Sequence record: NC_052657.1
From: Escherichia phage muut
Reading direction: 5' to 3' (one strand)
Length of the DNA: 64,000 nucleotides
Shown: one piece after another, positions 8,958 to 44,824 of the stretch
Numbering within the stretch: the first letter of the stretch is position 1
Layout of the letters: every line of letters starts with the position of its first letter
The notes under the pieces: generated by a model
What the model was told of the DNA's origin: nothing
The model's input: only the letters and a program-made list of their open reading frames with translations
Databases searched by the model: none
Program-made: the position numbers and the translations under genes

Positions 8958-9388
8958 ATAAATTACTTCAGTGTTACCACAAAGTGACGAACTGCTTTTC
9001 GTGCAGCAGAAGCCAGAGGCTTAGCATACTTAAGTTCATCTTTTTCCATTATAAATTCTCTTTTAAATGAAAATGCAGGACTTATTGGCATTGCCTGCGC
9101 AAGCCCTCAAGGGGAACATAGGTTTTTGTATATTTAACGACCAGGATAACCATAAACCCGTCATCATTCACATTCAAGAGGTACACCATAAAACTGCCGG
9201 GGTCTTAAAACTATAATGATTCGCAAATCATTAATCAGACAGTTCGATGGCTCCTCGATTTTAGCTCACACTAAGGCAGTGAATCTCCAATAAACTAAAA
9301 AATCACTTAAAAAGAACCGCTAGAGTTTGAAGGAGAAAACCATGAGCGAAAAGAGAAATTTTCTCTAGCGATTCCATTTAAATAATCT

Positions 9389-9463
9389 TGGAGCGAGTAA
9401 CAGGACTTGAACCTGCACCTGGAGGGTGGAAACCTCATATGCTACCATTAACACTATACCCGC
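9389..9463 (-). tRNA. tRNA-Gly (anticodon UCC)
   Basis: 75 nt; anticodon loop TTTCCAC, T arm GCAGG-TTCAAGT-CCTGT, acceptor GCGGGTA/TACTCGC with one G-U, CCA. Confidence 0.6.
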
Positions 9464-9518
9464 TTAACAATATTACTCTAACATATTATTAGCCCCTTTG
9501 TCAAGAGGCTTTTAATAT

Positions 9519-9842
9519 TTATTTTAAAATAGTAGATGCACCACGTCTGTTTAGATATGCAACCGTAAAGCTCAAATCACCTATTTCTTCAGGTTCCCAC
9601 TGACCTTCTAAGCCATAACAAGAACAATGATATGCGTGTACTTCATAAAACAAAGATGTTTTCATATCATAGAAATAAACGTGAGATTCGCCTTCATAAT
9701 ATGCACAATCATAAGTGGCAGAAAGAATTACAATGTTATCCTTATCTAACTCTACTTCATAATATCTTTCAACATCTTCAATATCATCAAAACCATCGAA
9801 AACATTGATATTAAAATATTTCTCTAACTCTTTTTCTGTCAC
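9519..9842 (-). CDS. hypothetical protein (about 107 aa) embedded in tRNA array
   Basis: ORF between tRNA-Gly and tRNA-Thr; probable GTG start with AGGGGG RBS. Confidence 0.45.
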   Translation of the reverse strand: MTEKELEKYFNINVFDGFDDIEDVERYYEVELDKDNIVILSATYDCAYYEGESHVYFYDMKTSLFYEVHAYHCSCYGLEGQWEPEEIGDLSFTVAYLNRRGASTILK

Positions 9843-9865
9843 ATACACCCCCTTTAGAGTTAAAT

Positions 9866-9940
9866 TGGTGCTCCCACAAGGACTCGAACCTTGATAAGTT
9901 GCTTACAAGGCAACCGTAATAGCCGTTATACGATAGGAGC
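9866..9940 (-). tRNA. tRNA-Thr (anticodon UGU)
   Basis: 75 nt; anticodon arm GTTGC-CTTGTAA-GCAAC, T arm CAAGG-TTCGAGT-CCTTG, acceptor 7 bp with one G-U, CCA. Confidence 0.65.
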
Positions 9941-10019
9941 AAAATATTTGCTTGGTAGGATTTGATACCTACAATTCTAGAAAATTCTAGAGGTTTCTAT
10001 TAACTCTACAAGCACTATT

Positions 10020-10104
10020 TGGCGATGGATCAAGGATTTGAACCTTGCTAGAACTTTCGTTCACGGATTAACAGTCCGTCGCCCAACCACTAGGCCAATC
10101 CATC
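10020..10104 (-). tRNA. tRNA-Asn (anticodon GUU) with unusually long variable arm
   Basis: Exact acceptor GATGGAT/ATCCATC, CCA, discriminator G; anticodon arm ACGGA-CTGTTAA-TCCGT; 15-nt variable hairpin GAAC-GAAA-GTTC. Confidence 0.5.
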
Positions 10105-10111
10105 TTTAATT

Positions 10112-10198
10112 TGGTGCAGGTAGTTGGACTCGAACCAACGAAGCCCCGAAGGGCAGGAGATTTACAGTCTCCAGCAATTGCCGCTATGCGATACCTAC
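10112..10198 (-). tRNA. tRNA-Tyr (anticodon GUA)
   Basis: 87 nt type II; anticodon arm GGAGA-CTGTAAA-TCTCC, variable hairpin GCCC-TTCG-GGGC, T arm GTTGG-TTCGAGT-CCAAC, CCA. Confidence 0.7.
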
Positions 10199-10203
10199 GT
10201 GTT

Positions 10204-10278
10204 TGGTACATCGTGAAGGATTCGAACCTTCGACCTTGGAGTTAAAAGCCCTTGCTCTACCAACTAAGCTAACGATGT
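10204..10278 (-). tRNA. tRNA-Lys (anticodon UUU)
   Basis: 75 nt; exact acceptor ACATCGT/ACGATGT, D arm GCTT-AGTTGGTA-GAGC, loop CTTTTAA, T arm GAAGG-TTCGAAT-CCTTC; anticodon stem only 3 bp. Confidence 0.6.
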
Positions 10279-10406
10279 ATAAATTATCTTTAAAATAGCC
10301 AGTGTTTGCGGCACTGACTATGAGGTATCGGTAAAATGGCTGCCACCATCTGCCGAAAGTTTACTCTGCTAAAGTAAGTAGCCTCAACGCTACATTAAAG
10401 ATAACT

Positions 10407-10492
10407 TGGCGGTAGATGTAGGACTTGAACCTACACGCCGTTTCCGACGACAGTTTAGCAAACTGTTGTGGCTACCATTTCACCAATCTACC
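10407..10492 (-). tRNA. tRNA-Ser (anticodon GCU)
   Basis: 86 nt type II; exact acceptor GGTAGAT/ATCTACC, anticodon arm ACAGT-TTGCTAA-ACTGT, long variable arm, CCA. Confidence 0.7.
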
Positions 10493-10500
10493 GTTTTTAA

Positions 10501-10653
10501 TTATTCAAAACAACCGGAATCTTTTTGTTCTGCTTTTACCATACGAATATTTTTACCATCTTCAGATTGTTGAAGATTAGAATACTCATAAACAACTTTA
10601 TTATTTACAATCTTAACTCCGGTAACAACCTGTCCAATAGTTTTATAATTCAT
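10501..10653 (-). CDS. hypothetical protein (50 aa)
   Basis: Start moved to internal ATG (AGGAG RBS) because longer track ORF overlaps tRNA-Ser(UGA). Confidence 0.4.
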   Translation of the reverse strand: MNYKTIGQVVTGVKIVNNKVVYEYSNLQQSEDGKNIRMVKAEQKDSGCFE

Positions 10654-10671
10654 AAAGCTCCTAGTTGAATT

Positions 10672-10761
10672 TGGAGGAAGATAATGGAGTCGAACCATCA
10701 CCGTATCACTACAATGGGCCAGGGTTCAAACCTGGTTGCGCACCGCTGCGCCCTACCTTCC
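10672..10761 (-). tRNA. tRNA-Ser (anticodon UGA)
   Basis: 90 nt type II; acceptor GGAAGGT/ATCTTCC with one G-U, anticodon arm CCAGG-TTTGAAC-CCTGG, T arm GATGG-TTCGACT-CCATT, CCA. Confidence 0.65.
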
Positions 10762-10824
10762 CGTTATCATACTTTAAATCTAACATAAAACTATCTTGCT
10801 TGTCAAGCAGTTTTTAAAACTTTT

Positions 10825-10906
10825 TGGCCGGGGTGACAGGATTCGAACCTGCATACTCCAATTACTCGGTTAACGCCTGATTAGAAGTCAGGTGAGATAC
10901 ACCCCG
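10825..10906 (-). tRNA. tRNA-Arg-like (anticodon UCU), non-canonical arm order
   Basis: Exact acceptor CGGGGTG/CACCCCG, CCA, T arm GCAGG-TTCGAAT-CCTGT; UCU hairpin sits right after U8-A9 and a D-loop-like segment follows it. Confidence 0.4.
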
Positions 10907-10978
10907 TTTTCACAGTAACTATAACAAAAAACTAAGTAAATGTCAAGATATTTTTACTAAAAATATTATTTAAATTGA

Positions 10979-11084
10979 AGCCTAGTTATGGAATCGAACC
11001 ATATTTCGTATTTAGTTAGACAAAGCGGTCTAACATATTTTTCAGGCTTTGATGGCCTCGGAATTACCAAATACCCTACTAGGC
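10979..11084 (-). ncRNA. tRNA-like element, about 105 nt, with large insertion
   Basis: Exact acceptor GCCTAGT/ACTAGGC and T arm TATGG-TTCGATT-CCATA, no CCA; inner hairpins AGGC-CATCAAA-GCCT and GTTAGAC-CGCTTT-GTCTAAC. Confidence 0.3.
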
Positions 11085-11086
11085 GT

Positions 11087-11171
11087 TGGTGCAAGTGGAG
11101 GGATTCGAACCCTCAAGCATTTAAGCGTTGCGTTTTAAGCACAATGTGTATCACCAATTCCACCACACTTG
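11087..11171 (-). tRNA. tRNA-Leu (anticodon UAA)
   Basis: 85 nt type II; exact acceptor GCAAGTG/CACTTGC, anticodon arm TTGTG-CTTAAAA-CGCAA, T arm GAGGG-TTCGAAT-CCCTC, CCA. Confidence 0.65.
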
Positions 11172-11286
11172 CATATAGGAGATGCATAGCACCTCCTTTT
11201 AAATGGTGGTTCCCCAGGGTTACAATCCCTGCCCTCGACACTTATGAGGTGTGCGCTCTCGTCAGTGAGCTATGGAACCTTGAATA

Positions 11287-12025: not shown

Positions 12026-13759
12026 TTAGTCAACCTGGATGGTTCCCATAGTACGAAGAACCTCTACATCAACACGGTTGCGGATATCAGTAAATGTTTC
12101 ATCACGTCCTTCTACTTGTGGTGTAATAACCGTACCATCTCTGAAGATAACTTGTAACTCATTGTCTTCATCTTGGATATCTTTAAAAGAAAGATTATCC
12201 ACAAGAGAAAGTTTACCATTTGTATCCTTAACAACCTTAATAAAACCTTTTGCAGAGCGTTTACCAGGATCAGTTTTAGGCTCCTTACTTACCAAAATTT
12301 CGTGTTCACCGATGATACTACCTGTTGCTTTAACAGCAAAACCAAAAGTATCTCGTGTATTGAACTGATAAGTATAACTACCAACACCAAATACAATATT
12401 GGAAGCTGCAAAACCTTTCTTCTTCAGTCGGCGTAAGATCTCGTGTTCTCGTTCAACAGTAATAGAATCACCATAAATCATACCGATGTGCTGATCAAGA
12501 ACCTTGTAGCCTTTTCGGTTGATAGTACCACCAAACACTTCCCAAAGGATTTGAATAGAACCTACTGCTTCACAATAAGGAATCTCATAAGTTTCATCAA
12601 TACAATCAGCAACACTGCAATCCTGAAGAACATTGTAATACTTATTAACATCAGCCAAATGAACTACTTCAGTGGCTGTAGCAATACCATTATTTAAAAG
12701 GTCTTCATAGTTATCAAAAGATTCAACATTGTATCCTGCAACAACTTTAACCGGATCTCCTGAGTCTGGACGAATAACAAGACGACCATTTCGTGACATA
12801 ATGGACTCTTTCAATTCTACCAGAATGCGAGTCAAGACAGCCCAGTAATCATAAGAATCTGCTACATATGAACAAAAACCTTCTGGAACAATTTCTTCAA
12901 TATAGCGGCGAAGAAACTCTTTCTCTGCTACATAACGAAGCCCATCAACATCATCTTTAAGATGTGGGAAATGTTTCTTCAGATCTTCAACAATAGCTCC
13001 AATGTTAGTCGTTGCTACTGAATGTTCTGTTGCCGGAATAGAACCTGCAACAAACTGATCATAATCAATACCATAATAATCATGCACAGTTTCAATAGCC
13101 AGAATATTATCTGTTCCTGTGAAAGATGCCAAATGAGCGATACCACTCTTATAACCATCTTCGACATTACTTAAACCACGTAGGCTAAAATCATGACACT
13201 GGAAGTTAACGTGATCAATATTATCACACGTTGCCATCGCATATGCCATAGCAATACGCTTATACTGAAAAGCTGCTGTAGCATTAGTCATTGTCTTCCA
13301 AGTTTCATCTGACAATAGTGTTTCCACATAATTAGTTAACCAAAAGAATTTTTCTAAAGTATTATGCACAGTAAACACAGGAACACCAATAGGACACAAA
13401 ACACCTTCTGGCAGAGATCGAACTTCCAGCGGAAGATAACCTAAATCGTGCAATTCTCCCCAACATTCAGCAGAAGGAGCAGAAGCACCTAATGCATTTT
13501 TAGACATACGATAAAATTTATTTACTGCTGCACTACGAGACATTTTAAAGAAGCTGTCCCACATAGTTACAAGGGCATCGGTGACTGCTCGACGAATACC
13601 TAAAACAATCACACCACGTGCTTCACGATCTGCATAGTGTGCAAAGTTTTTATCATTACGAGGAGTTAAATTAGAGAAAATGAGTTTTGTATTTTGGTTG
13701 TACATCTGCTTGTGACCAGGCTTATACCAATCAGTAGCAAAAGGTGCAAAAATATTCAT
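12026..13759 (-). CDS. nadV: nicotinamide phosphoribosyltransferase-family enzyme (NadV/Nampt-like; possibly Namat of NARP1)
   Basis: 577 aa; resembles NadV/Nampt by eye and co-operonic with a Prs-like gene; family membership inferred, not searched. Confidence 0.65.
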   Translation of the reverse strand: MNIFAPFATDWYKPGHKQMYNQNTKLIFSNLTPRNDKNFAHYADREARGVIVLGIRRAVTDALVTMWDSFFKMSRSAAVNKFYRMSKNALGASAPSAECWGELHDLGYLPLEVRSLPEGVLCPIGVPVFTVHNTLEKFFWLTNYVETLLSDETWKTMTNATAAFQYKRIAMAYAMATCDNIDHVNFQCHDFSLRGLSNVEDGYKSGIAHLASFTGTDNILAIETVHDYYGIDYDQFVAGSIPATEHSVATTNIGAIVEDLKKHFPHLKDDVDGLRYVAEKEFLRRYIEEIVPEGFCSYVADSYDYWAVLTRILVELKESIMSRNGRLVIRPDSGDPVKVVAGYNVESFDNYEDLLNNGIATATEVVHLADVNKYYNVLQDCSVADCIDETYEIPYCEAVGSIQILWEVFGGTINRKGYKVLDQHIGMIYGDSITVEREHEILRRLKKKGFAASNIVFGVGSYTYQFNTRDTFGFAVKATGSIIGEHEILVSKEPKTDPGKRSAKGFIKVVKDTNGKLSLVDNLSFKDIQDEDNELQVIFRDGTVITPQVEGRDETFTDIRNRVDVEVLRTMGTIQVD

Positions 13760-13830: not shown

Positions 13831-14724
13831 TTAAAAATTCCACACGTATGGAGATACAATTTGTTGTTGCAAATCTGACTGATTCTTAACAAGAACACCG
13901 GAATCTTCTTGGATGTTATCTTCCCACACATTAAGAGAATGAATGCAGTCAAAGTGCTCACTTAACTCTTTAAGACCTTTAGAAAAGATACCGTGTGTAA
14001 CATATAACTCAATCTTACCTGCGTTACGAGCACGTAGCACTTTAGCCAATTCAATAAAAGTTCTACCGCCGTCACAGATATCATCTACGATCATCAGGTT
14101 ACGCTTATTGAAATCCTGTACAGAAATGTCTGTACGAACAATAGCACCTGTCGCAGTATCTCTAACCTTCTCTGCACAGAACACATCTAAAGACATTTTC
14201 TTAGATAATTTAAATATTTTCTTAAGAGCACCACCATCAGGACTAACAAGAGCAAAATTCTCCATACGTAACTTCCACTTTAAAGTTTCGTAAGCAATCT
14301 CTTCTTGAGGTATTACACAGAGTCTGTCAAACACCGCTGGAGTAACATCACTATGTGGATCAGCAACGATAACACGTGAGAAATTTAATGAATTAATTAT
14401 AGAAGCAAATGCTTTAACTCCGAATGCTTCCCCAGGTTCACACACTCTGTCTTGTCGTGCATATGGCACATACAACATGAGCAAATCAACACAATATGGT
14501 TTATGATATAGCATATTGTCCAATGCATTCTTAGTCATAACCAAAGTCATCAAGTCTTTAGCAGATCTTACTTCTAAAGAGAGTAAGATTCTGTCTGTAG
14601 CATGATTGAAACCTGATAGATTCGTATCTAGTTGAACATGTTGTTCTCCACCAGAGAATGTAAAGACTTTAACGTCTACATCAGTAACATAACAGTTAAC
14701 ACCATGTAGAATACTAACTTTCAT
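13831..14724 (-). CDS. ribose-phosphate pyrophosphokinase-family enzyme (Prs-like; possibly Adps of NARP1)
   Basis: 297 aa; PRPP-binding loop MIVDDICDGGRTF typical of Prs / type I phosphoribosyltransferases; directly upstream of nadV-like gene. Confidence 0.6.
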   Translation of the reverse strand: MKVSILHGVNCYVTDVDVKVFTFSGGEQHVQLDTNLSGFNHATDRILLSLEVRSAKDLMTLVMTKNALDNMLYHKPYCVDLLMLYVPYARQDRVCEPGEAFGVKAFASIINSLNFSRVIVADPHSDVTPAVFDRLCVIPQEEIAYETLKWKLRMENFALVSPDGGALKKIFKLSKKMSLDVFCAEKVRDTATGAIVRTDISVQDFNKRNLMIVDDICDGGRTFIELAKVLRARNAGKIELYVTHGIFSKGLKELSEHFDCIHSLNVWEDNIQEDSGVLVKNQSDLQQQIVSPYVWNF

Positions 14725-14763
14725 TGTTTATCTCCTTAGTTAAGTTAGGACTTTATGTTCTCT

Positions 14764-14792
14764 ACTCTACATACAGATAGATCTAAAGTCAA
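14764..14792 (-). promoter_or_regulatory. sigma70-like promoter for prs-nadV operon
   Basis: On minus strand TTGACT-17-TAGAGT about 40 nt upstream of prs-like start. Confidence 0.45.
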
Positions 14793-14970
14793 TAGATATT
14801 TATTATTTAATTAATAATAAAATTAATAAAGAATCTATTGTTAGTATAGAGCATGTATGTTAGTATTATAAACATAACATAGTGCTATATGTAGACTACT
14901 CAGTTGTCTGTTAGATCATGTATCACAGGATTAGATAACACCCCCTCGCTGCGCTCGGCGTTTTTCGGGG

Positions 14971-14994
14971 GTTAGGGTAGCATACTTTTTTGCG
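14971..14994 (+). promoter_or_regulatory. conserved upstream element TTAGGGTAGCAT-N2-TTTTTT-N-CG (copy 1)
   Basis: Near-identical 24-nt motif recurs in opposite orientation at 55907-55930; both precede the first gene of an operon. Confidence 0.35.
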
Positions 14995-15133
14995 TTTGTC
15001 AACACCTTTTTAGATTATTTTTAAGTACAACCTAAACCTCCTAAAAACGATTGTAACGAGTTTTACTGTGAGGTAAGGTGATTGCATATCTTAAAGGCCA
15101 TTAGCTCGTTACAGAGCCGTATAGGAGGGAATA

Positions 15134-16291: not shown

Positions 16292-16566
16292 GAAAAACTT
16301 ATCTGAAGTGTTTGTCTGTTGTGCAAAATGAATGGTATTCAGGTTTGCTGACAGCAGGTAAGAAATATGAAGTGCTCAATAAACCAGGGGCAAGATTTTC
16401 ATTAATTAAGAACGACGAAGGCACTGAAATGCTTATTTCAGTTGCAGATTCTGTGTATGGTACTTTTGAGTTTGTCTATGAACATGCACCAATTATTCTT
16501 GAATACAGCGGTACAAACAAACCTTACACAGCTTTAGATGTGATCAACAACAAAAGGAATAAGTAA
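16288..16566 (+). CDS. hypothetical protein (92 aa)
   Basis: Track ORF, start overlaps upstream stop. Confidence 0.45.
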   Translation: MRKTYLKCLSVVQNEWYSGLLTAGKKYEVLNKPGARFSLIKNDEGTEMLISVADSVYGTFEFVYEHAPIILEYSGTNKPYTALDVINNKRNK

Positions 16567-16760
16567 TGTTTCTTATTTATTCAGGTAAAGCCAAATACAT
16601 GCAAGGTGTAAAGCGTGTAGAAGTAGCAGATACTGTAACTATAGGAAAATCCTTTATTCTTTATTTGTTTTATATCAATGGAGAAAGATTTGCTGTTTCT
16701 AAGAAGTTGGTAGATAATGGTAAAACTTGGAAAGAAGAGAAACAGGAAGGGGGTAGATAG
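16566..16760 (+). CDS. hypothetical protein (64 aa)
   Basis: Track ORF, start overlaps upstream stop. Confidence 0.4.
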   Translation: MFLIYSGKAKYMQGVKRVEVADTVTIGKSFILYLFYINGERFAVSKKLVDNGKTWKEEKQEGGR

Positions 16761-17101
16761 TGGCTAAAATTCTTTGGTTAGACGATTTAAGAGATCCTAA
16801 AGATTATGGTTATGAGGATGCCATTTGGTTAAAATCTTTTGAGGATTGGTTATCTTTTGTTTCAGATGAAGATAATTTCAATAATATCTCAGAGATACAC
16901 TTCGATAATGATCTTGGAGAAGATCAAGAAGGATATCATGCGTTCTTAGACGTAGAATGTATGTTGTACGCGGGTGAATGGGATGCTCTTAAAACTATCT
17001 ATGTTCATACATCAAATCCTTCTGCTGCTGGTAAATATATGTTAGCTAAGGAAAATTTTATTTCATCCTATGGTGTTGAAATTAAACGTGTTAACTATTA
17101 A
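16760..17101 (+). CDS. hypothetical protein (113 aa)
   Basis: Track ORF, start overlaps upstream stop. Confidence 0.45.
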   Translation: MAKILWLDDLRDPKDYGYEDAIWLKSFEDWLSFVSDEDNFNNISEIHFDNDLGEDQEGYHAFLDVECMLYAGEWDALKTIYVHTSNPSAAGKYMLAKENFISSYGVEIKRVNY

Positions 17102-17109
17102 GTAGGTAT

Positions 17110-17259
17110 TATGCATTACTCAGTTTGGTCAGAGCAAGAAGAGGATGAAGGGCGTTTTATCTATAAAGAGGAAGAAAACTGTAACGATATGAGTAATGAT
17201 CTTTTACTTCCTGATTACAGTTTTTTCGCTGATAGACTAAAAGAGTATAGGGAAAATTG
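17110..17259 (+). CDS. hypothetical acidic protein (49 aa)
   Basis: Sub-cutoff ORF filling gap; its stop overlaps next start (TGATG). Confidence 0.3.
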
Positions 17260-17619
17260 ATGTGCGCTACTAATCAACATGATATTTGTTACCAACCTCT
17301 TACCTGGATTGGTGAGGATCACTATGCTCAACGTGTTATAGTCTGCGCTGCGAATAAGTATATTCTCAATAATGGCGAAGAGTTAATTATTCCTTGTGTT
17401 AGACATGCAAATCCTGTACTATCTGCACAACTTAATGTTTTAAAAGATGCAGGATTGATTGATAAACTGTTTTGCTTACCTGATAATCAAGGGTTTATTG
17501 ATCAGTATTATAATTGGTGGAGTCGAAAAGATGCTTATATCATTGCAGATAACGCCAAACAAATTAACTACGAAAGAAATGGTCACAACAGTGAACTATT
17601 CAGCGAGGGATTATACTAA
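17257..17619 (+). CDS. hypothetical protein (120 aa)
   Basis: Track ORF; no motif recognised. Confidence 0.45.
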   Translation: MMCATNQHDICYQPLTWIGEDHYAQRVIVCAANKYILNNGEELIIPCVRHANPVLSAQLNVLKDAGLIDKLFCLPDNQGFIDQYYNWWSRKDAYIIADNAKQINYERNGHNSELFSEGLY

Positions 17620-18170
17620 TGTTTATTACAAGTGATTTGCATTTTATGCACAAACGTATCCGAGAGTTTGCTCCTGAATATCGCCCGTGGGAAGATATGG
17701 AGCATATGACAGAAGCACTGATCGAAGCATGGAATAAATGTGCCACAACACCAGGAGTAAAGATGTACCATCTTGGGGACTTCTGTTTCGGGACTGAAGA
17801 AGATACCCGTAAGATTGCTTCCCGTCTCCAAGGAGATATTACTTACTGTGTTGGGAACCATGATTACAGCAAACACAGAAAAGTGCTTGCAGAGTATGGA
17901 GAAGTTGTGTATTATGACGAAGTGAAATATCAGAAGCTGTTCTTCGTCTTAAGTCATTACCCTATGGCTGCCTGGAATAAACAAGGGCATGGATCAATCA
18001 TGCTACACGGACACTCTCACGGATCATTCCCTGATCATTTATATGGGAAAATGTTGGATGTTGGTTGGGATGCACACGGGAAAATCTTGCATTTTGACGA
18101 AATCATCTCTATTATGGATAAGCGTGATATTATTGTTGTAGATCATCATAAGATAATCAAAGGAGATTAA
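17619..18170 (+). CDS. calcineurin-like metallophosphoesterase (candidate RNA 3-prime/2-prime,3-prime-phosphatase)
   Basis: Motifs SDLHF, LGDFCFG, VGNHD, LHGHSHG; first gene of phosphoesterase-ligase-kinase trio. Confidence 0.65.
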   Translation: MFITSDLHFMHKRIREFAPEYRPWEDMEHMTEALIEAWNKCATTPGVKMYHLGDFCFGTEEDTRKIASRLQGDITYCVGNHDYSKHRKVLAEYGEVVYYDEVKYQKLFFVLSHYPMAAWNKQGHGSIMLHGHSHGSFPDHLYGKMLDVGWDAHGKILHFDEIISIMDKRDIIVVDHHKIIKGD

Positions 18171-18171
18171 G

Positions 18172-19104
18172 GTGGCTAAGTTCAATTGTGATGACCTGAT
18201 TGCAAAAGGTTTAGTGCATAAAAAAGAAGTTAAATCTGGAGAGTATGCTGGTCTTGCTGTACTTAAATACAAAAACAATGTATTCTGGGATAACTTGTGG
18301 AACGTTGACAAACGACTTTTAGATTGTCGTGGGTTGGTTGTTGACTCAGAAGACAATGTTGTTATTTGGCCTTTTACTAAAATCTTTAATCGTTTTGAAA
18401 ATGGTACAGATCTTCCAGCAGACGAAATTGTAGATGCTGTCCGTAAAGTAAACGGTTTTATGGCATCTGTAGGTGTGTACAAAGGGAAACTTGTTGTATC
18501 AACAACAGGGAGCCTAGAATCAGATTTCGCAATTATGGCAAAGAACCGTATTGTTTCCGAGTGTGACGACATAGAGTATTTCATTAAGTGGACAGAAAGT
18601 GCAAAAGCAACTTTTCTTTTTGAAATCTGTGATCCTTCTGATCCACATATTGTCGAAGAAGAACCAGGCGCATACTTAATTGGAGCAAGAATTCAAAATC
18701 TTGATGGGACAAGTTTCATGTTACCTGAAGGTGTTCTTGATGGGATTGCATCTGTTACAAAATTTAAACGTCCTGAAGTTTATCCGATGATTAAATTTTC
18801 AGATGTTGTTGAAATGTCTAAACATTGTAAACACGAAGGGTTTGTTGTTCGTGAAACAAACTATCCGTTTAACTTACTGTTAAAGATTAAGTCACCATAC
18901 TATCTTGCTAAAAAATTCCTTATGCGTGGTGGCAATAAGAAGTGGGATATGATTTGGGACAACCCAAACAATGCTAAACAAATTGTTGACGAAGAATATT
19001 ATACTTTGCTAGAATGGCTTCGAAACAACTTTACTAAGACTCAATGGGCTGCTTTAGATCCACAAGAGCGACGTAAAGAAATAGAAAACTTCTTTGGAGG
19101 CTAA
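18172..19104 (+). CDS. RNA ligase-like nucleotidyltransferase
   Basis: Motif I KVNGF, III FLFEICD, IV EGFVVRE, V LLKIKS; GTG start with AAAGGAG RBS. Confidence 0.55.
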   Translation: MAKFNCDDLIAKGLVHKKEVKSGEYAGLAVLKYKNNVFWDNLWNVDKRLLDCRGLVVDSEDNVVIWPFTKIFNRFENGTDLPADEIVDAVRKVNGFMASVGVYKGKLVVSTTGSLESDFAIMAKNRIVSECDDIEYFIKWTESAKATFLFEICDPSDPHIVEEEPGAYLIGARIQNLDGTSFMLPEGVLDGIASVTKFKRPEVYPMIKFSDVVEMSKHCKHEGFVVRETNYPFNLLLKIKSPYYLAKKFLMRGGNKKWDMIWDNPNNAKQIVDEEYYTLLEWLRNNFTKTQWAALDPQERRKEIENFFGG

Positions 19105-19509
19105 ATGAAACAACTTATCATCTTACGTGGTGTTTCAGGTGCAGGTAAATCTACAGTAGCAGAAATTATTTCTGAAGGTTATTGGCCTATCTGTGAGGCA
19201 GATCAATATCATTACACAGAAAGTGGTGTTTACGATTGGAAGCCAGAGAATGTAGGTAAAGCACACGCATGGTGTCAGAGTATTGTTCGTGATGCTATGG
19301 CATCTAATATTAAAAAGATTATTGTCTCTAACACTTCAACCACAGAGAAAGAACTTAAACCTTATTTAACTCTTGCTGAAGAGTTTGGTTATCAAGTTAT
19401 CTCTTTAGTAGTTGAAAATAGGCACGGTAACGACTCAATTCATGAGGTTCCACAACATATTCGTGATCAGCAAGAGAAACGTCTTCGCAGTTCACTTAAA
19501 CTACAATAA
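19105..19509 (+). CDS. polynucleotide 5-prime-kinase-like P-loop kinase
   Basis: ILRGVSGAGKST P-loop and later segment resembling T4 Pnk kinase domain. Confidence 0.6.
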   Translation: MKQLIILRGVSGAGKSTVAEIISEGYWPICEADQYHYTESGVYDWKPENVGKAHAWCQSIVRDAMASNIKKIIVSNTSTTEKELKPYLTLAEEFGYQVISLVVENRHGNDSIHEVPQHIRDQQEKRLRSSLKLQ

Positions 19510-19518
19510 GGAGAGTGT

Positions 19519-19839
19519 ATGGAAATTTATTCTGGTGAAGGTAAGTATTTTACAGTAGTCGATAATGGTGAAATTATTATTTATCGCTACGGAAGTGAGT
19601 GGAGGAACGAGACAGGAGACGGCTATATCTTATCTTTGCTCCGTTTGATTAATGATCTTACGGAAGAACTTGAAGAAACAAAACGTTCATATGATGACCA
19701 AGTAGATTCATTAGAAAACATTATTTCAGATCTAAATGAAGAAGTTTGTTATTTGAGTGGACAAGTTTCAGAGTTAACACTGGAATGTGAAGATTTAGGT
19801 GATGTTATTGCAGATTTAAATGAACGTCTTAAGGATTAA
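19519..19839 (+). CDS. hypothetical coiled-coil protein (106 aa)
   Basis: Track ORF; heptad-like acidic C-terminal half. Confidence 0.4.
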   Translation: MEIYSGEGKYFTVVDNGEIIIYRYGSEWRNETGDGYILSLLRLINDLTEELEETKRSYDDQVDSLENIISDLNEEVCYLSGQVSELTLECEDLGDVIADLNERLKD

Positions 19840-19842
19840 TAT

Positions 19843-20067
19843 ATGAGTACAGCTATCTATGTTAAAGGTGTAAGCGAAGATCAACAAATGTTATTCTCAT
19901 TTGGTGAGAATACTGAAATGGAAGATATGTTTAATGATATCCTTGATGCCCTTTCTTCGGAAGGGTTCACAATGATTACATACTTTATGGCAACATCTTC
20001 TGAATATGTTGATACAGATCTTGAAGATTTGATGGAAGAAATTCAAACTCTTGTGTATAATTGGTAA
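19843..20067 (+). CDS. hypothetical acidic protein (74 aa)
   Basis: Track ORF. Confidence 0.4.
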   Translation: MSTAIYVKGVSEDQQMLFSFGENTEMEDMFNDILDALSSEGFTMITYFMATSSEYVDTDLEDLMEEIQTLVYNW

Positions 20068-20264
20068 GGTTAACTATGACATTTATTGAAGAACTAACGA
20101 GAATTGCAAACGCGCCTAACAGTAGTGAAGATCCTTACTTTATGGTGGATGATTACACTGGTGGTAATATTGATGATGCCTATGAACTAGGCAGACTACA
20201 CGGTGAAATTGAAATGGCTAAATGGGTTCTTTCGCAACTGGAGGTTAAAGATGAAACAAACTAA
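20061..20264 (+). CDS. hypothetical protein (67 aa)
   Basis: Track ORF; overlaps both neighbours by a few codons. Confidence 0.35.
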   Translation: MVRLTMTFIEELTRIANAPNSSEDPYFMVDDYTGGNIDDAYELGRLHGEIEMAKWVLSQLEVKDETN

Positions 20265-21366
20265 TCCTACATTGTATGGTAAAACTTCTACAGGTAAAAT
20301 TAAACAGTGGTCAGTCTATACCGAAGGTAGTGTTGTAACTGTTGCTCATGGTCAATTAGGTGGAAAGATTACTAGCAAATCTTATACAGCAGAACCTAAA
20401 AATATTGGTCGCTCAAATGAAACAACAGCAGAAGAACAAGCTGAAATAGAAGCTCTTGCCAAATGGACAAAACAACTTAAGAATGGGTATTATAAAACAA
20501 AAGAGGAAGCTGAAAACCATGTTCCTTCCACACCCATGAAATGTCAGGATTATAAAGATTATGCTGATCGTGTTTTGTTCCCAGGTTATGCACAATATAA
20601 ATTGAATGGTCTACGTTCAATGATTAACATGCAAGGTGAATGTTTATCTAAAGCTGGGGAAGTATATAAACTTCCACCTCACTGGAAAGAAATTCCAACC
20701 TTCATTAAAGAAGTAGTTGGTCATCCTCTTGATGGTGAAGTTTTTGCTGGTCTGGGTGTCCTTAGCCTTCAACAAATTAATAGTGCGTGGAAAAAGCACA
20801 ATGCTAACACACCGCTTCTTAAATATTATGTATACGATGTTCCTGTGGCATCTGTACCATTTGAGAAGAGGGTTCAAGTTTTGGCTGCTCTAAAAGAAGT
20901 TGTTGAAGATAAAGGTTTAGATGAACTTATTTGTGTAGTACATACAGAGTACATTGAAAACCAAGAACAGTTTGATGCTTTCTATGCAAAAGCTCTACAT
21001 GAGAAAGCGGAAGGTGTGGTGTATCGTAACGCACAAGGTGTTTACGAATTCGATAAACGTTCTTATGATGTTATTAAACGTAAACCACGTCAGACGCTTG
21101 AAGTTAAAGTGGTAAGTGCAAAGCGTGATAAAAATGGTGACGGGGTATTGACAGGCGAGATGGAAAATGGTAAAGTAGTCGAATTCCTGATGCGTAAGGA
21201 TTCAGATGAAACCATTAACTATCGTAAAGCAGAAAATGCCGAAATGTTAATTGGTAAATTTGTTGAGATTGAGTATGAAGAGTTTTCCGATGGTGGAATA
21301 CCTACGAAACCAACAGGTGTCCGTTTACGGGAAATGGTGGAGGGAACATGGGAGCCAAGAGAGTAG
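20251..21366 (+). CDS. ATP-dependent polynucleotide (DNA) ligase
   Basis: Start reset to ATG 20251 (GGAGG RBS); motifs KLNG, LDGEV, EGVVYRN, VIKRK and OB-like C-terminus. Confidence 0.5.
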   Translation: MKQTNPTLYGKTSTGKIKQWSVYTEGSVVTVAHGQLGGKITSKSYTAEPKNIGRSNETTAEEQAEIEALAKWTKQLKNGYYKTKEEAENHVPSTPMKCQDYKDYADRVLFPGYAQYKLNGLRSMINMQGECLSKAGEVYKLPPHWKEIPTFIKEVVGHPLDGEVFAGLGVLSLQQINSAWKKHNANTPLLKYYVYDVPVASVPFEKRVQVLAALKEVVEDKGLDELICVVHTEYIENQEQFDAFYAKALHEKAEGVVYRNAQGVYEFDKRSYDVIKRKPRQTLEVKVVSAKRDKNGDGVLTGEMENGKVVEFLMRKDSDETINYRKAENAEMLIGKFVEIEYEEFSDGGIPTKPTGVRLREMVEGTWEPRE

Positions 21367-21977
21367 ACTTTGTAGGTAAGAAATGCGGTTGTTATACTGT
21401 CTTAGAAGAGATTGAAAGGGACAAACATGGCAAAAGACGTTTTACTTGTTCTTGTGATTGTGGTAATATTTGCACGGTAACTATGGAAACACTTAGGAAG
21501 AATAGAAGTTCTTATTGTTCCAAGTGTAGACCGAAAACAACACAAACAGGAGCATACAAATCGTGGGAAGCTATGTTAGGGAGATGCTATAACAAAAACA
21601 ATACTCACTTTGAATACTACGGTGGTCGTGGTATTAAGGTTTGTGATGCTTGGAGAAATTCATTCTCTGCATTCTTTGAGGATATGGGAGATAGACCTAA
21701 AGGCTTATCTCTTGACAGAATAGACTCGGAAAAAGATTACAGTAAAGAAAATTGTCGCTGGGCTACAAGGTCTGTCCAGTCATACAATACACGAAAACAG
21801 AAAAATAACACTTCTGGTAAAACAGGTGTTGTGTGGAGCGAGAAAGAAAAAAGATGGATTGCTCGTATATCCTATCAAGGAAAAGATATCCGTCTTGGAG
21901 CATTTATTGATATTGAAGATGCTATATCAGCAAGACAGGAAGCTGAAGTATTGTATTTTGGCAAGATTAAAACATAA
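21348..21977 (+). CDS. HNH-family homing endonuclease-like protein
   Basis: Cys cluster (KCGCY...CSCDCG) and segment YGGRGIKVCDAW...SLDRID...NCRWAT seen in phage HNH annotations; overlaps ligase end. Confidence 0.45.
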   Translation: MGAKRVDFVGKKCGCYTVLEEIERDKHGKRRFTCSCDCGNICTVTMETLRKNRSSYCSKCRPKTTQTGAYKSWEAMLGRCYNKNNTHFEYYGGRGIKVCDAWRNSFSAFFEDMGDRPKGLSLDRIDSEKDYSKENCRWATRSVQSYNTRKQKNNTSGKTGVVWSEKEKRWIARISYQGKDIRLGAFIDIEDAISARQEAEVLYFGKIKT

Positions 21978-21988
21978 AGGAGGTTGCA

Positions 21989-22180
21989 ATGAGCATTGAA
22001 GTTATTTTGATTCTTGTGTTGCTTTCTATTGTTGCTTGTGGTATAATTGTCGCATCAACTTTCCCTCACCCAACATGGTGGCAGAAGGCTAGTCTGATGA
22101 TTGTCTACGGTGCAGCAGGTGTACAAATGGGTGCAGTTGTTGTATATCTGGTGGAATTTACAAAACAATATTTTAAATAA
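21989..22180 (+). CDS. small membrane protein (63 aa)
   Basis: Two predicted TM helices. Confidence 0.4.
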   Translation: MSIEVILILVLLSIVACGIIVASTFPHPTWWQKASLMIVYGAAGVQMGAVVVYLVEFTKQYFK

Positions 22181-22189
22181 GGAGAAACA

Positions 22190-22912
22190 ATGATCGAGAA
22201 TTTTTTCAAACAAGTAAAAGTGGACAATAGCTTCTTTATCAAAGCTGCCGATCAAATTGTTGCTTGGAATGCTAAGGCACGTGGTGGAGTAACTCCAGAG
22301 TTTACTCAAGAGATGTTTGAAGCTCAACTTTCTTTTGTACGAGAAGAACTTAAAGAGTTCCAAGCAGCAGCACAGGAAAATGATCACGTTGAATTACTTG
22401 ATGCAGCAGCAGATATTTTTGTGGTAGCATCCTATCTGGCATTTATGTTCTTTGGTAAAGAAGGTGTTGATAAAGCTCTGGAAATGCCGACAGGAGATGT
22501 TCTGGCAGAAAACATTTACGATGTTATCATTGAATTCGATAAAATGGTAGAAAATGACTTGCAATTTGCCTTAATGTCTCTTACACTTACCCGTATGGCA
22601 CGAGATACTTTGGTGCGTTCTGTTTATAACGAGAAGAAGGTTATGCGTGAAGTGTTGAATAGCAATGAATCCAAGTATCCTACCAAGAAGCAACTCCTGG
22701 CTATTTGGGAAACTAAGGATATTATTGAAGCTCTTGAAAAAGAGTGCGATGCTATCGAGATGCGAAGCAAAGATCGTGCAGAAGGTTCTTATACTGGGGT
22801 ACATGCTGTATATAACGAAGTTCAAAAGGTATACGTATTCTTTGATGACAAAGGTAAAATTATGAAACCATCTACCTTTGTTAAACCTAATATCGCAGCA
22901 ATCATTGCTTAA
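22190..22912 (+). CDS. MazG-like NTP pyrophosphohydrolase (tentative)
   Basis: REELKEF...DHVELLDAAADIFVVA resembles the MazG/HisE EExxE...DxxD metal-binding helix pair. Confidence 0.35.
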   Translation: MIENFFKQVKVDNSFFIKAADQIVAWNAKARGGVTPEFTQEMFEAQLSFVREELKEFQAAAQENDHVELLDAAADIFVVASYLAFMFFGKEGVDKALEMPTGDVLAENIYDVIIEFDKMVENDLQFALMSLTLTRMARDTLVRSVYNEKKVMREVLNSNESKYPTKKQLLAIWETKDIIEALEKECDAIEMRSKDRAEGSYTGVHAVYNEVQKVYVFFDDKGKIMKPSTFVKPNIAAIIA

Positions 22913-22919
22913 GAAATAA

Positions 22920-22939
22920 AGCCCCTTCGGGGGCTTATT
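22920..22939 (+). terminator. putative terminator hairpin (UUCG loop)
   Basis: AGCCCC-ttcg-GGGGCT then TATTGG; T-run weak. Confidence 0.35.
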
Positions 22940-22948
22940 GGAGGTATT

Positions 22949-28870: not shown

Positions 28871-29842
28871 ATGACAAACTCTATTTCAGCAAAAATTATT
28901 GCACACTCTCAAACATCTGAAGGTAAGGATATTGTTACCTTTGAACTTGAATATCCTCGAATCATTCACTCTGAATTGATGACGCATCGTTTGTTTTCTC
29001 GTAATGCCGCATCAAGTCGAGCTATCCCTGTTAAAACTCTAATTGAAATGGTACGGCAATCTCCCGCACGTCCTTATCGTTTTGGTGCTAACCAACCAGG
29101 TATGCAAGATAAAGGCACAGATCACGATGCCCTGATTGATGCAGGTTACACTGCAAAAGAATGGTGGGACTTGGCTGCGCTAAGTGCTGCACGTTTTGCA
29201 GAAGAGTTTGCCCTTGCTGGTTATCATAAACAGGTTGCAAACCGCCTACTAGAACCATTCCAGCGTATGAAGACTGTAGTAACCACTACAGAGCTAGAAA
29301 ACTTCTTGTGGTTGCGCGTAGATGCTGATGCAGATCCTACTATTGAGGCTCTTGCTAAAGAAATTAAAAAACTGTATGAATCTTCTGAACCATATCTTCT
29401 TTTCCCAGGGGAATGGCATACACCTTACGTTAATCGTGATCGAGATCCAGAAACTGGTATGATCCGTTATTTCTTGGGTGAAACCTTCTCCAACGAGAAA
29501 ATGTTGACAGAAGAGGAAGCAAAAGCTATTTCAGCTTCTTGTTGCGCTCAGGTAAGTTATCGTAAATTGAATGATACTAAAGATAAAGCATTGGATATCT
29601 ATTCTCGTTTGCTGTCTGGACAAAAGGTACATGCATCTCCGTTTGAACACCAGGCAACACCAATGAAAGAAATGGATTTGTCAGGATTAAAACAACAGAA
29701 AGGTGGTATTAATATTCCTCCGTTCCCTACTTCTTGGGAAGAAGGTATTACACACATGGATCGTAAACATCGTTTGTGGAGTGGAAACTTCTGTGGTTGG
29801 ATTCAACATCGTCAACTTTTGACTAACCATACAAAATGGTGA
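28871..29842 (+). CDS. thyX: flavin-dependent thymidylate synthase
   Basis: ThyX signature RHRLFSRNAASSRAIP (RHRxxSxxxxSxR). Confidence 0.85.
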   Translation: MTNSISAKIIAHSQTSEGKDIVTFELEYPRIIHSELMTHRLFSRNAASSRAIPVKTLIEMVRQSPARPYRFGANQPGMQDKGTDHDALIDAGYTAKEWWDLAALSAARFAEEFALAGYHKQVANRLLEPFQRMKTVVTTTELENFLWLRVDADADPTIEALAKEIKKLYESSEPYLLFPGEWHTPYVNRDRDPETGMIRYFLGETFSNEKMLTEEEAKAISASCCAQVSYRKLNDTKDKALDIYSRLLSGQKVHASPFEHQATPMKEMDLSGLKQQKGGINIPPFPTSWEEGITHMDRKHRLWSGNFCGWIQHRQLLTNHTKW

Positions 29843-32924: not shown

Positions 32925-33260
32925 ATGCCTACATTAGTTGTATTACCTGGGGCAACACCACAAAGACGCTGGGGAAATTATACACTGGTAGATAGTAAAG
33001 ATTTTACATTCGATTGGTGTTGTCATTATATTGCAGGTTTTCAATTTTCCAGTGTTGAAATATGGGCTTCCAATGATCCCATAGCTACCTGGTATGCTTT
33101 AACCAGAGCAAGGTATGAGGGAGAGGTTACTATACTACTCACAAAGAGTGTATGGGACGCATTAGAGAAGGCTTACCTAGAGGATGGTATGGAGAGAGAA
33201 CACATTGATACAATAAAAGCAATGTGTGATATTGTGGAGGATTTAAATGGCAGCAATTAA
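32925..33260 (+). CDS. hypothetical protein (111 aa)
   Basis: Start reset to ATG 32925 (AAGGAGG RBS) so that terminator hairpin is not translated. Confidence 0.4.
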   Translation: MPTLVVLPGATPQRRWGNYTLVDSKDFTFDWCCHYIAGFQFSSVEIWASNDPIATWYALTRARYEGEVTILLTKSVWDALEKAYLEDGMEREHIDTIKAMCDIVEDLNGSN

Positions 33261-35203: not shown

Positions 35204-35401
35204 ATGATGCTAGATCAACTGATCAATGCTCCTCGCGTAACAGTAAGTCCAAAAACATTTGCATCACTTTTAGAAGATGCTAGAGAGGTTTATAACTTTA
35301 CTGAAGAAGAGCTTCCTGTTCCTGTTAAAAAAGGTTCCAGATGGTTGTTTTATGAAGGTATTATTTTTACTGAAGGGAATAATTGGAAGGAGACTAAATG
35401 A
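35204..35401 (+). CDS. hypothetical protein (65 aa)
   Basis: Start reset to ATG 35204 (AAGGAGG RBS). Confidence 0.4.
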   Translation: MMLDQLINAPRVTVSPKTFASLLEDAREVYNFTEEELPVPVKKGSRWLFYEGIIFTEGNNWKETK

Positions 35402-36387: not shown

Positions 36388-36395
36388 GGAGGAGT

Positions 36396-37265: not shown

Positions 37266-37277
37266 AGGGGGAATTAA

Positions 37278-44497: not shown

Positions 44498-44824
44498 ATG
44501 AAAATAACGACAGAACAGGCTTTAATAGACAAAGGAAGGGAAATCTTAGAAAGTCATTTGGAGGATATTCAAAGGACTCCAGGGTATCTCGGCTGGCGTA
44601 TACAAGAAGCCGTCGATTTTCTACCCCGTAAAAATAAAGAGATTGAAGTAAGATCTCTATTCCTCCTTGTTAAAGTAGATGGTGACGCTATATACAAAGA
44701 TGTAGCGTCTCACATTGAACAAATAGAAGAAAAAGCCTACAAAGAATTTGCAGATCTTGTTGTAGAACATAATATAGAAGGTAAAGTTAATATCTTTATA
44801 CTTATGGATTTTGAGGAGAGTTGA
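44498..44824 (+). CDS. hypothetical protein (108 aa)
   Basis: Track ORF. Confidence 0.4.
   Translation: MKITTEQALIDKGREILESHLEDIQRTPGYLGWRIQEAVDFLPRKNKEIEVRSLFLLVKVDGDAIYKDVASHIEQIEEKAYKEFADLVVEHNIEGKVNIFILMDFEES

Follow-up and report, generated by a model that had tools for sequence, protein, structure and literature searches.

What might three small genes that lie end to end in the genome of Escherichia phage muut accomplish together? The genes occupy positions 17619–19509 of the 64,000-nucleotide stretch of DNA that we analysed (sequence record NC_052657.1), which we refer to as the window; all coordinates are positions in it, on the + strand unless stated. In order, they encode a metallophosphoesterase (17619–18170, 183 aa), an ATP-dependent RNA ligase (18172–19104, 310 aa, with a GTG start) and a P-loop 5'-kinase of the polynucleotide kinase (Pnk) type (19105–19509, 134 aa), equivalent to gp097, gp096 and gp095 of phage phi92. 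Our analysis makes it probable that this trio constitutes a dispersed, or 'split', RNA heal-and-seal system in an early or middle operon of a phi92-like myovirus; by analogy, it would most likely mend RNAs, above all tRNAs, that bacterial defence nucleases have cut. The region 16500–19900 shares 97–99% identity with about 54 phi92-like coliphages (Justusliebigvirus, Stephanstirmvirinae), with phage Nernie as the best match (99.1%) and phi92 at 97.7%. In phi92, gp097 is annotated as 'phosphoesterase', gp095 as 'ATPase', and gp096 is unnamed; labels in other GenBank records include 'RNA ligase', 'putative RNA ligase/RNA repair', 'polynucleotide kinase' and 'nucleoside/nucleotide kinase'.

The preliminary description of this DNA had placed three contiguous, translationally coupled genes at 17619–19509, and the open reading frames (ORFs) lie exactly there. 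The stop codon of the gene upstream shares bases with the start of the phosphoesterase gene (TAATG), a single base separates the TAA of the latter from the GTG of the ligase gene (with AGGAG 7 nt upstream of the GTG), and the TAA of the ligase gene directly abuts the ATG of the kinase gene (with GGAGG 6 nt upstream). Each of the three junctions has a Shine–Dalgarno sequence 6–8 nt upstream of the start codon. Between 14.5 and 23.5 kb, neither promoter-like sites (34, against 29.5±6 in shuffled sequence) nor terminator-like sites (4, against 4.5 in shuffled controls) were in excess; together with the tight junctions, this places the trio inside one long + strand block. That block begins after a divergent intergenic region (14725–15133), and its first convincing hairpin lies at 22919–22944, 3' of a MazG gene. 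From its sequence, the cassette region fits a single long putative transcript. An opposite-strand ORF of 181 aa (18039–18584) arises as a side effect of the coding frames.

The central protein matched the Pfam family RNA_lig_T4_1 (2.2e-14) and had 2,574 relatives in a word-indexed search. In an alignment of 22 relatives with 50–86% identity, residues R53, K70, F72, K92, N94, G95, E151, E222, G223, K238 and K240 are invariant; motif I reads K92-V-N94-G95 and motif IV EGFVVR, in agreement with the nucleotidyltransferase ligase with a KxNG motif that had been proposed. While a single-sequence search of the PDB returned nothing significant, the family profile reached T4 Rnl1 as its sole match (E 1.3e-9), with Trl1 undetected by sequence. 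R53, K70 and F72 align to T4 R54, K75 and F77, the position of T4 Phe76 being Ile or Val, and K92/G95, E151, E222-G223 and K238/K240 align to T4 K99/G102, E159, E227-G228 and K240/K242. Previous work showed that Arg54 and Lys75, in the N-terminal sub-module of T4 Rnl1, contact the ATP γ-phosphate (PMC6379707). The 22 homologues therefore combine motifs I, III, IV and V with the N-terminal sub-module residues of Rnl1/Rnl4/Rnl6-type adenylyltransferases. The profile alignment extends to T4 residue 249, short of the C-domain, and motif V is followed by only ~65 helical residues. Since it is the appended domain that sets one RNA ligase family apart from another (PMC6379707, PMC11404444), the phage protein is not an Rnl1 in the strict sense.

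Structure prediction points the same way. The AlphaFold2 model of the ligase has a predicted local distance difference test (pLDDT) score of 90.7, and a Foldseek search with it returned T4 Rnl1 and the fungal Trl1 ligase domain (Trl1-LIG) first (E 1e-13 to 1e-11), with archaeal Rnl3 next and Rnl2, Rnl5 and DNA ligases after it. Scores in structural comparison ran from 21.9 for T4 Rnl1 (261 residues aligned) and 20.1–21.3 for Trl1-LIG through ~16 for Rnl3, 12.7 for Rnl5 and 11.7 for Rnl2 to 7.8 for the C-terminal ligase of Clostridium thermocellum Pnkp (CthPnkp-C, Rnl4), with all DNA ligases below 9. Sequence profile and fold ranking together identify the protein as an RNA ligase of the Rnl1/Rnl6 adenylyltransferase type, with a predicted core equidistant from Rnl1 and Rnl6 and a short C-terminal module of its own.

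The same protein belongs to PHROG 562, named 'RNA ligase and tail fiber protein attachment catalyst', a name repeated in many GenBank product lines, and T4 gp63 does possess both activities. The ligase homologue might accordingly be read as a catalyst of tail-fibre attachment. We regard this as highly improbable: the name derives from T4 and reflects homology in the nucleotidyltransferase domain alone, the C-domain peculiar to T4 is missing, and all catalytic ligase residues are strictly conserved. Moreover, the gene sits among early nucleic-acid metabolism genes rather than tail genes, and it is fused or coupled to the kinase and the phosphoesterase, as described below.

The kinase matched Pfam AAA_33 (6.9e-10), PHROG 2071 'ATPase' (8.9e-58) and PHROG 505 'polynucleotide kinase' (5.8e-9), with a weak match to the deoxynucleoside monophosphate (dNMP) kinases of PHROG 139 (1.4e-4) that is confined to the P-loop. 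Across 26 homologues, the P-loop G9xxG12xGK15(S/T)T, D33 and the motifs NTxT, ENRHG and HxVP are invariant. A single-sequence search of the PDB again found nothing significant, and Pnk kinases were reached by the family profile only: Pnkp1 (4xrp, from the Pnkp1-Rnl-Hen1 repair complex) at 1.8e-6, T4 Pnk at 3.5e-5 and C. thermocellum Pnk (CthPnk) at 1.4e-4. The segment D33-x-Y35-H36 aligns to D35-x-Y37-R38 of T4. In a gapped region of the HMMER alignment, the invariant Arg106 of ENRHG falls on T4 Arg122, four residues from Arg126, the lid arginine of T4 Pnk. With the AlphaFold2 model (pLDDT 91.6), Foldseek placed CthPnk and T4 Pnk on top, at template modelling (TM) scores of 0.75–0.80 (0.77 for CthPnk 4jt2), compared with 0.43–0.66 for gluconokinase, PFK-2 and adenylate kinases. 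A nucleoside monophosphate (NMP) kinase was considered and rejected, adenylate and UMP/CMP kinases scoring 0.43–0.53. The protein thus shows a P-loop, an Asp general base and a Pnk fold lacking the NMP-binding and lid domains, and we predict from sequence and model that it is a 5'-OH end-healing enzyme of the Pnk family. The P-loop kinase resembling the T4 Pnk kinase domain that had first been suggested is therefore borne out by profile and fold. The comparison with T4 Pnk, Rnl1/Rnl2 and C. thermocellum Pnkp proposed with it led from the kinase to CthPnk and T4 Pnk, and from the ligase to T4 Rnl1 above Rnl2. A DNA-specific ligase paired with a dNMP kinase, the outcome that would have spoken against RNA repair, is disfavoured by the Pnk fold of the kinase and by the coupling of the three genes described below.

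The first protein of the trio matched PHROG 547 'phosphoesterase' (8.5e-55), and all five metallophosphoesterase motifs (D6xH8, G53D54, G79N80H81, H113 and G131H132xH134) are invariant in 28 homologues, as expected of the calcineurin-type enzyme initially described. On its own it falls under the gathering cut-off of Pfam Metallophos_2 (20.6 against 27), while homologues carry PF12850 or PF00149. Its dinuclear metal motifs and separate gene also uphold the earlier remark that a metallophosphoesterase stands here in place of the HAD phosphatase fused to the kinase in T4 Pnk. The family profile found Aquifex aeolicus aq_1665 in the PDB (1xm7, E 2.9e-22), with no match to CthPnkp or lambda phosphatase, which by sequence assigns the protein to the aq_1665 clade, outside the lambda-phosphatase clade that includes C. 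thermocellum Pnkp. Its predicted role is 3'-end healing, as a 2',3'-cyclic phosphodiesterase and/or a 2'/3'-phosphomonoesterase. The window holds a second metallophosphoesterase of the lambda-phosphatase/PrpA type (44821–45567, +; Pfam Metallophos 2.9e-13; NCBIfam Ser/Thr phosphatase 4.9e-27), with a weak match to bacterial Pnkp (TIGR04075, 3.2e-6). It belongs to the clade of the C. thermocellum Pnkp phosphatase, yet is not linked to the ligase.

To place the three genes in context, we collected 80 diverse IMG/VR viral loci with a ligase homologue (39–97% identity; several loci are incomplete) and searched their six-frame ORFs with hidden Markov models (HMMs) of the three families, within a distance limit of 7 kb. 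The kinase was found near the ligase in 74 of the 80 loci and the phosphoesterase in 65. The main orders were phosphoesterase-ligase-kinase (36 loci) and kinase-ligase-phosphoesterase (22 loci), nearly always on the same strand and mostly abutting. In 12 of the 80 loci, the kinase and ligase models matched one ORF, and the four that we inspected are genuine kinase-ligase fusions of ~420 aa. Among the best 150 of 23,332 relatives of the phosphoesterase, P0363 is fused to a PF09414 RNA ligase domain and P0416 to PF18143 (HAD_SAK_2, the 'Swiss-army-knife RNA repair' HAD domain). At the level of genomes (INPHARED, 50,697 phage genomes), 605 records carry the ligase and 614 the kinase, with nearly identical counts per genus (ligase/kinase: Escherichia 197/196, Pseudomonas 175/173, Vibrio 83/89, Klebsiella 36/36, Acinetobacter 24/24). 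Synteny and fusions therefore indicate that the three genes are functionally coupled, and a shared, putative function in RNA-end processing is well supported by guilt-by-association and Rosetta-stone reasoning. In one distant locus (L084), a Thg1-like protein (PF04446; 5854–6561) lies upstream of the three genes in the same operon; no other was found in the window or the other stored loci. Thg1-like proteins are 3'-5' polymerases used in tRNA 5'-end repair.

A few further observations were made in these data sets. The opposite strand of L084 encodes a PnuC-like nicotinamide mononucleotide transporter and an AAA_28 kinase. The contigs with a fused kinase-ligase also encode a tmRNA ~5–6 kb downstream (L053, 13189–13591; L057, 10399–10801; L059, 12208–12604; L062, 12208–12610), with the tag peptide AANDANYGDYALAA or ANDDVYNLALAA, which is another translation-rescue element next to repair genes. 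Several 'Campylobacter phage' records (host C. jejuni; MG065639, MG065645, MG065656, MG065689 and others) have ~98% identity to phi92-like coliphages, and others resemble rV5-like ones; these are most likely mislabelled or contaminant genomes.

Motifs, folds, linkage and fusions together lend a heal-and-seal role good inferential support, and suggest how the enzymes could divide the work. The kinase would move a phosphate from a nucleoside triphosphate onto the 5'-OH end of a broken RNA, and the binuclear metallophosphoesterase would open and remove a 2',3'-cyclic (or 3'/2') phosphate, presumably leaving a 3'-OH. The ligase, adenylylated on Lys92, would then activate the 5'-phosphate as AppRNA and seal the break. 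Such a division of labour, on the lines of T4 and CthPnkp, is the simplest account of the trio. The net effect would be to restore host or phage-encoded tRNAs, so that translation is maintained, and the system may thereby counter defence by anticodon nucleases.

Several observations weigh against this interpretation. In the kinase, His36 (at least 90% conserved) occupies the position of the essential Arg38 of T4 Pnk, which holds the phosphate 3' of the acceptor nucleoside. In the ligase, the essential Lys119 of T4 (the basic residue of motif Ia) is replaced by the invariant Thr112 of an STTG motif, and the C-terminal domain of T4 Rnl1 (~120 aa, tRNA specificity) is missing, although a partial likeness of a few helices is possible. 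The phosphoesterase family comprises 23,332 cluster representatives at E≤1e-3, and occurs in 1216 phage genome records against 605 for the ligase, including Staphylococcus, Bacillus and Enterococcus phages; in the ligase-bearing genera with listed counts it is at least as frequent as the ligase. Family size and the twofold record count imply that the phosphoesterase is not dedicated to the ligase, and aq_1665, its sole solved relative, has no assigned function and is therefore uninformative on its substrate. In favour of the interpretation, genes for tRNA or tmRNA lie within 7 kb of the ligase in 23 of 40 diverse loci (at least three in 11 of 40), suggestive of a recurrent 'translation-protection' neighbourhood, though this was counted without a permutation control among related phages that are not independent. 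We found no biochemical or genetic test of any protein of the trio in the literature. Lastly, an ATP-dependent DNA ligase lies within 7 kb of the RNA ligase in 43 of the 80 loci, so that DNA-end healing is possible for both healing enzymes.

This last point belongs to an alternative in which the kinase and phosphoesterase process 5'-OH/3'-phosphate nicks in DNA for the DNA ligase, or work on free nucleotides together with MazG, thymidine kinase and nucleotidase, with the Rnl1-like protein in a minor or different role. The DNA ligase gene lies 0.7 kb downstream of the trio in the window, and in phi92 the block includes genes for MazG, RdgC, one subunit of DNA polymerase, thymidine kinase and 5'(3')-deoxyribonucleotidase. 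T4 Pnk and mammalian PNKP act on DNA too, and the weak P-loop match to dNMP kinases may be counted here as well. The kinase, however, is fused to the RNA ligase and not to a DNA ligase in the 12 loci, matches the RNA ligase genus by genus, and has a fold far closer to Pnk than to NMP kinases, while members of the phosphoesterase family occur joined to domains for RNA repair. Since the fusion partners are of the RNA-repair kind, we consider DNA-end healing the weaker explanation and judge it, together with a role in nucleotide metabolism, to be improbable.

The genes around the trio raise the question of whether the system extends beyond three enzymes. A cREC protein of 113 aa (16760–17101, +; phi92 gp100 equivalent) is encoded 0.5 kb upstream (Pfam PF20274 cREC_REC, 2.3e-14, 54.3 bits against a cut-off of 27). 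The domain was defined in PMC7824862, and opening of cyclic phosphates has been proposed for it (PMC7824862, PMC9503650). Iterated HMM searches of the 80 loci found cREC next to or inside the ligase module in 10, a SIR2-family sirtuin near the ligase in 11 and MazG within 7 kb in 13, in each case in rV5/phi92-like loci exclusively. We therefore predict cREC to be a lineage-specific accessory and a candidate cyclic-phosphate opener. The label 'putative RNA ligase and tail attachment protein' that it bears in GenBank for phage JLBYU50 (L082, 3761–4102) was unsupported by our searches. Between cREC and the trio lies a conserved protein of 120 aa (17257–17619, +; phi92 gp098 equivalent; PHROG 839, unknown function, 3.9e-47) with no relative in Pfam, NCBIfam or the PDB; NCBIfam likewise holds no model for the trio proteins or cREC. 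Some GenBank records, including that of JLBYU50, call it a 'putative anti-restriction nuclease', which could not be substantiated. With a homologue in 3 of the 80 loci only, it is probably not part of the core. MazG, a nucleotide pyrophosphohydrolase-like protein (22190–22912, +; Pfam PRA-PH 3.2e-7; PHROG 671 5.9e-28), is an accessory of the published rV5-type neighbourhood, with a putative link to RNA repair by analogy.

In rV5-like loci the sirtuin gene directly follows the kinase gene (L004–L008, L013 and L016; for example at 8724–9497 in L004). No sirtuin gene was found within 7 kb of the cassette in the window, where it lies 31 kb away (50773–51588, +; Pfam SIR2 3e-20), flanked by ORFs that yielded an HNH match only. 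A sirtuin homologue is present in 982 phage records, including many ~105–115-kb Salmonella or Escherichia phages that are not among the ligase matches; Salmonella phages account for 289 sirtuin records against 14 for the ligase, and the ten genera named in the sirtuin results do not include Pseudomonas, 175 of whose phages carry the ligase. The rarity of cREC, SIR2 and MazG near the ligase and the different distribution of the sirtuin together identify phosphoesterase, ligase and kinase as the conserved core.

Two further neighbours lie on the − strand between the cassette and a tRNA array: a NAMPT-like gene (12026–13759) and a PRPP-synthetase-like (PRPS-like) gene (13831–14724). Within 7 kb of the ligase, NAMPT-like genes were found in 40 of the 80 loci and PRPS-like genes in 32. 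The pair has the two-domain operon architecture of NARP1 (Adps and Namat) of phage Bas63, which rebuilds nicotinamide adenine dinucleotide (NAD+) from ADP-ribose and nicotinamide (bioRxiv 10.1101/2024.02.11.579819). Bas63 (JohannRWettstein) was not among the 60 records matching the pair at DNA level, so that orthology to the NARP1 enzymes is suggested by domain pair and synteny only. We also considered the phosphoesterase of the trio as the NARP1-associated ADP-ribose-1''-phosphate phosphatase and found this unsupported, the published enzyme being a Macro-domain protein and not a metallophosphoesterase.

These neighbours bear on a scheme of NAD+-dependent ligation as in yeast, proposed by Iyer et al. 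(2022) for the rV5/Mydo neighbourhood (PMC9503650). In such a scheme, cREC and/or the phosphoesterase would open the cyclic phosphate to a 3'-OH,2'-PO4 end, the ligase would require that 2'-PO4 as Trl1 does, and the sirtuin, acting like Tpt1/KptA, would use NAD+ to take the 2'-phosphate off the junction. The ADP-ribose by-products would be cleared by phosphoesterase and MazG and recycled to NAD+ by the NAMPT-like/PRPS-like pair. The gene content is consistent with it: cREC precedes the trio, SIR2 and MazG are present in the window, SIR2 follows the kinase in rV5-like loci, and half of the 80 loci have a NAMPT-like gene nearby. The ligase motifs KVNG and EGFVVR are also nearer to those of Trl1 (TLKENG, EGFVIR) than to those of T4 (KEDG, EGYVAV). 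The 2'-PO4 triad of Trl1 consists of His227 (+9 from motif III) and Arg334/Arg337 (+9/+12 from motif V) (PMC6379707, PMC11404444); in the phage ligase, the invariant His159 lies at +8 from the motif III Glu, and Lys247, Lys248 and Arg252, also invariant, at +7, +8 and +12 from the second motif V Lys, a likeness of linear spacing alone. The scheme must, however, be set against the scarcity of cREC, SIR2 and MazG around a core that is the trio, the divergent distributions of sirtuin and ligase in Pseudomonas and Salmonella, and a ligase profile that detects T4 Rnl1 and not Trl1. Moreover, no sirtuin is known to have 2'-phosphotransferase activity. On balance, we find ligation of this kind unlikely.

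An extension of this thought, to which we give slim credence, is that this widespread ligase clade, neither Rnl1 nor Rnl6, stands as a family in its own right, combining an Rnl1/Rnl6-type core with a short C-terminal module of its own, and recognises a 2'-phosphate end as Trl1 does. His159, Lys247-Lys248 and Arg252 would then be the candidate 2'-PO4 triad. The phi92/rV5-like phages would run a eukaryote-style tRNA ligation, with cREC or the phosphoesterase as the cyclic phosphodiesterase (CPD) and the sirtuin as an NAD+-consuming Tpt1 analogue, and the recurrent NARP1-type neighbourhood would be a sign of a metabolic link between RNA repair and NAD+ recycling.

The split heal-and-seal reading, which we prefer, had originally been tied to a 16-gene tRNA array said to lie beside the cassette. 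An array does exist at 8242–11279 on the − strand, with 15 tRNA genes called by ARAGORN and one Rfam element, where phi92 annotates 16. It is neither adjacent nor on the same strand: 6.3 kb separate it from the cassette, with the NAMPT-like/PRPS-like pair and about ten small genes between them, and the two are transcribed divergently from 14725–15133, the pair being part of the array unit. The sixteenth member (10828–10906, −; anticodon UCU, Arg; 38.6 bits in Rfam, not called by ARAGORN) is degenerate, having no D-arm (reduced to 4 nt) and a long variable region of ~20 nt, and may be a pseudogene or an unusual tRNA. Of the common nuclease targets that the array had been said to encode, Lys, Tyr and Asn are present, along with two Met genes.

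Other cargo of the window was noted in passing. An HNH endonuclease (21348–21977, +; PHROG 374, 3.6e-71) sits between the DNA ligase and a small gene before MazG, overlaps the end of the DNA ligase ORF by 19 nt and is not at the corresponding position in phi92; it is probably a mobile homing endonuclease. Farther downstream lies a block for deoxythymidine diphosphate (dTDP) sugars (35398–38659, +), an unusual phage cargo comprising an RmlB-like dehydratase (35398–36387), an RmlA-like nucleotidyltransferase (36396–37265), an ORF of 184 aa (37278–37832) and an RmlD-like reductase (37829–38659), which may serve host-surface or DNA modification. A serine recombinase/resolvase-domain protein (43028–43690, +; 8.4e-22) and a C5 cytosine DNA methyltransferase (47734–48723, +; 1.7e-43) share one + strand block, and the window also encodes ThyX (28871–29842), a ribonucleotide reductase small subunit (33247–34332) and PhoH (39622–40374).

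Since several records already label the three genes as RNA ligase/RNA repair, phosphoesterase and polynucleotide kinase, and an RNA repair role for the rV5/Mydo neighbourhood had been predicted (PMC9503650), our findings are a confirmation rather than a surprise. What they add is that the trio, and not the sirtuin, is the conserved core, that kinase-ligase fusions and fusions of the phosphoesterase to RNA-repair domains occur, that the ligase stands equidistant from Rnl1 and Rnl6 with its own C-terminal module, and that a link to NARP1-type genes (40 of 80 loci) and tRNA genes is frequent. Defences that cleave tRNA are common in bacteria and include PrrC, RloC, PARIS, Retron-Eco7, OLD-family tRNases and HEPN effectors, while to our knowledge T4 Pnkp/Rnl1 is essentially the sole phage RNA-repair system studied experimentally. 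At least 600 sequenced phages carry the trio; their hosts include Escherichia, Pseudomonas, Vibrio, Klebsiella and Acinetobacter, and the genetically tractable phi92-like BASEL phages PaulScherrer, EmilieFrey and JohannJBalmer are among these phages. If our interpretation is correct, heal-and-seal counter-defence would be a general phage strategy, the very large aq_1665-type phosphoesterase family would gain its first function, and RNA work would acquire two compact new enzymes, the kinase of 134 aa and the ligase of 310 aa.

Among known systems, T4 Pnkp and Rnl1, which repair tRNA-Lys after PrrC cleavage, comprise the same three predicted steps of 5' phosphorylation, 3' healing and ATP-dependent sealing. 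Both systems are encoded by phages with a tRNA cluster, and both use a P-loop kinase of the Pnk family and an Rnl1-type adenylyltransferase domain, including the N-terminal sub-module with its Arg54/Lys75 equivalents. They differ in that 3' healing would fall to a stand-alone binuclear metallophosphoesterase in the trio, and in T4 to a DxDxT (HAD) phosphatase within the kinase polypeptide. The kinase of the trio is free-standing at 134 aa, with His36 for T4 Arg38. The ligase has 310 residues against 374 in T4, a ~65-aa C-terminal module that cannot be aligned with the tRNA-specificity domain of Rnl1, KxNG instead of KxDG in motif I and an invariant Thr in place of T4 Lys119.

In its enzyme types the trio is like C. 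thermocellum Pnkp-Hen1, which likewise unites a Pnk-type kinase, a metallophosphoesterase (2',3'-cyclic phosphodiesterase/phosphatase) and an ATP-dependent ligase, and whose CthPnk domain comes nearest in fold to the phage kinase (4jt2, TM 0.77). There, however, the activities reside in a single polypeptide, whereas the phage has separate genes in the order phosphoesterase-ligase-kinase. CthPnkp has a phosphoesterase of the lambda-phosphatase clade and an Rnl4 ligase, whereas the phage phosphoesterase belongs with aq_1665, a structural-genomics metallophosphoesterase of the same N-terminal motif layout. CthPnkp pairs with the 2'-O-methyltransferase Hen1, and no Hen1 or methyltransferase domain was detected in the neighbouring ORFs that we scanned.

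Fungal and plant Trl1 (LIG-KIN-CPD) with Tpt1 is nearer than T4 to the trio in ligase motifs I and IV, and the kinase-ligase fusions of relatives recall it; cREC and sirtuin could mimic CPD and Tpt1, as hypothesised in PMC9503650. The phage fusions, by contrast, are ordered kinase-ligase and not ligase-kinase-CPD, a 2H cyclic phosphodiesterase is lacking, and the C-terminal module of the ligase is probably not the five-helix domain of Rnl6.

Closest in gene content is the sirtuin-centred rV5/Mydo neighbourhood, read as NAD+-utilising RNA repair by Iyer, Burroughs, Anantharaman and Aravind (2022, Viruses 14:1977, section 3.7.3; PMC9503650), who listed a T4-like tRNA ligase, cREC, a nucleotide kinase, MazG, an 'occasional' calcineurin-like phosphoesterase and a sirtuin. 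The same families are present in the window, with ligase, kinase, phosphoesterase, cREC and MazG all within 16760–22912, and the phages belong to the same broad group, Mydo and rV5 being among the ligase and kinase matches. In the window, however, the sirtuin is displaced to 50773–51588, and cREC lies upstream of the trio and not between ligase and kinase. Across the wider set of loci, the phosphoesterase, far from occasional, is a core partner (65 of 80), whereas sirtuin, cREC and MazG are lineage-specific (10–13 of 80).

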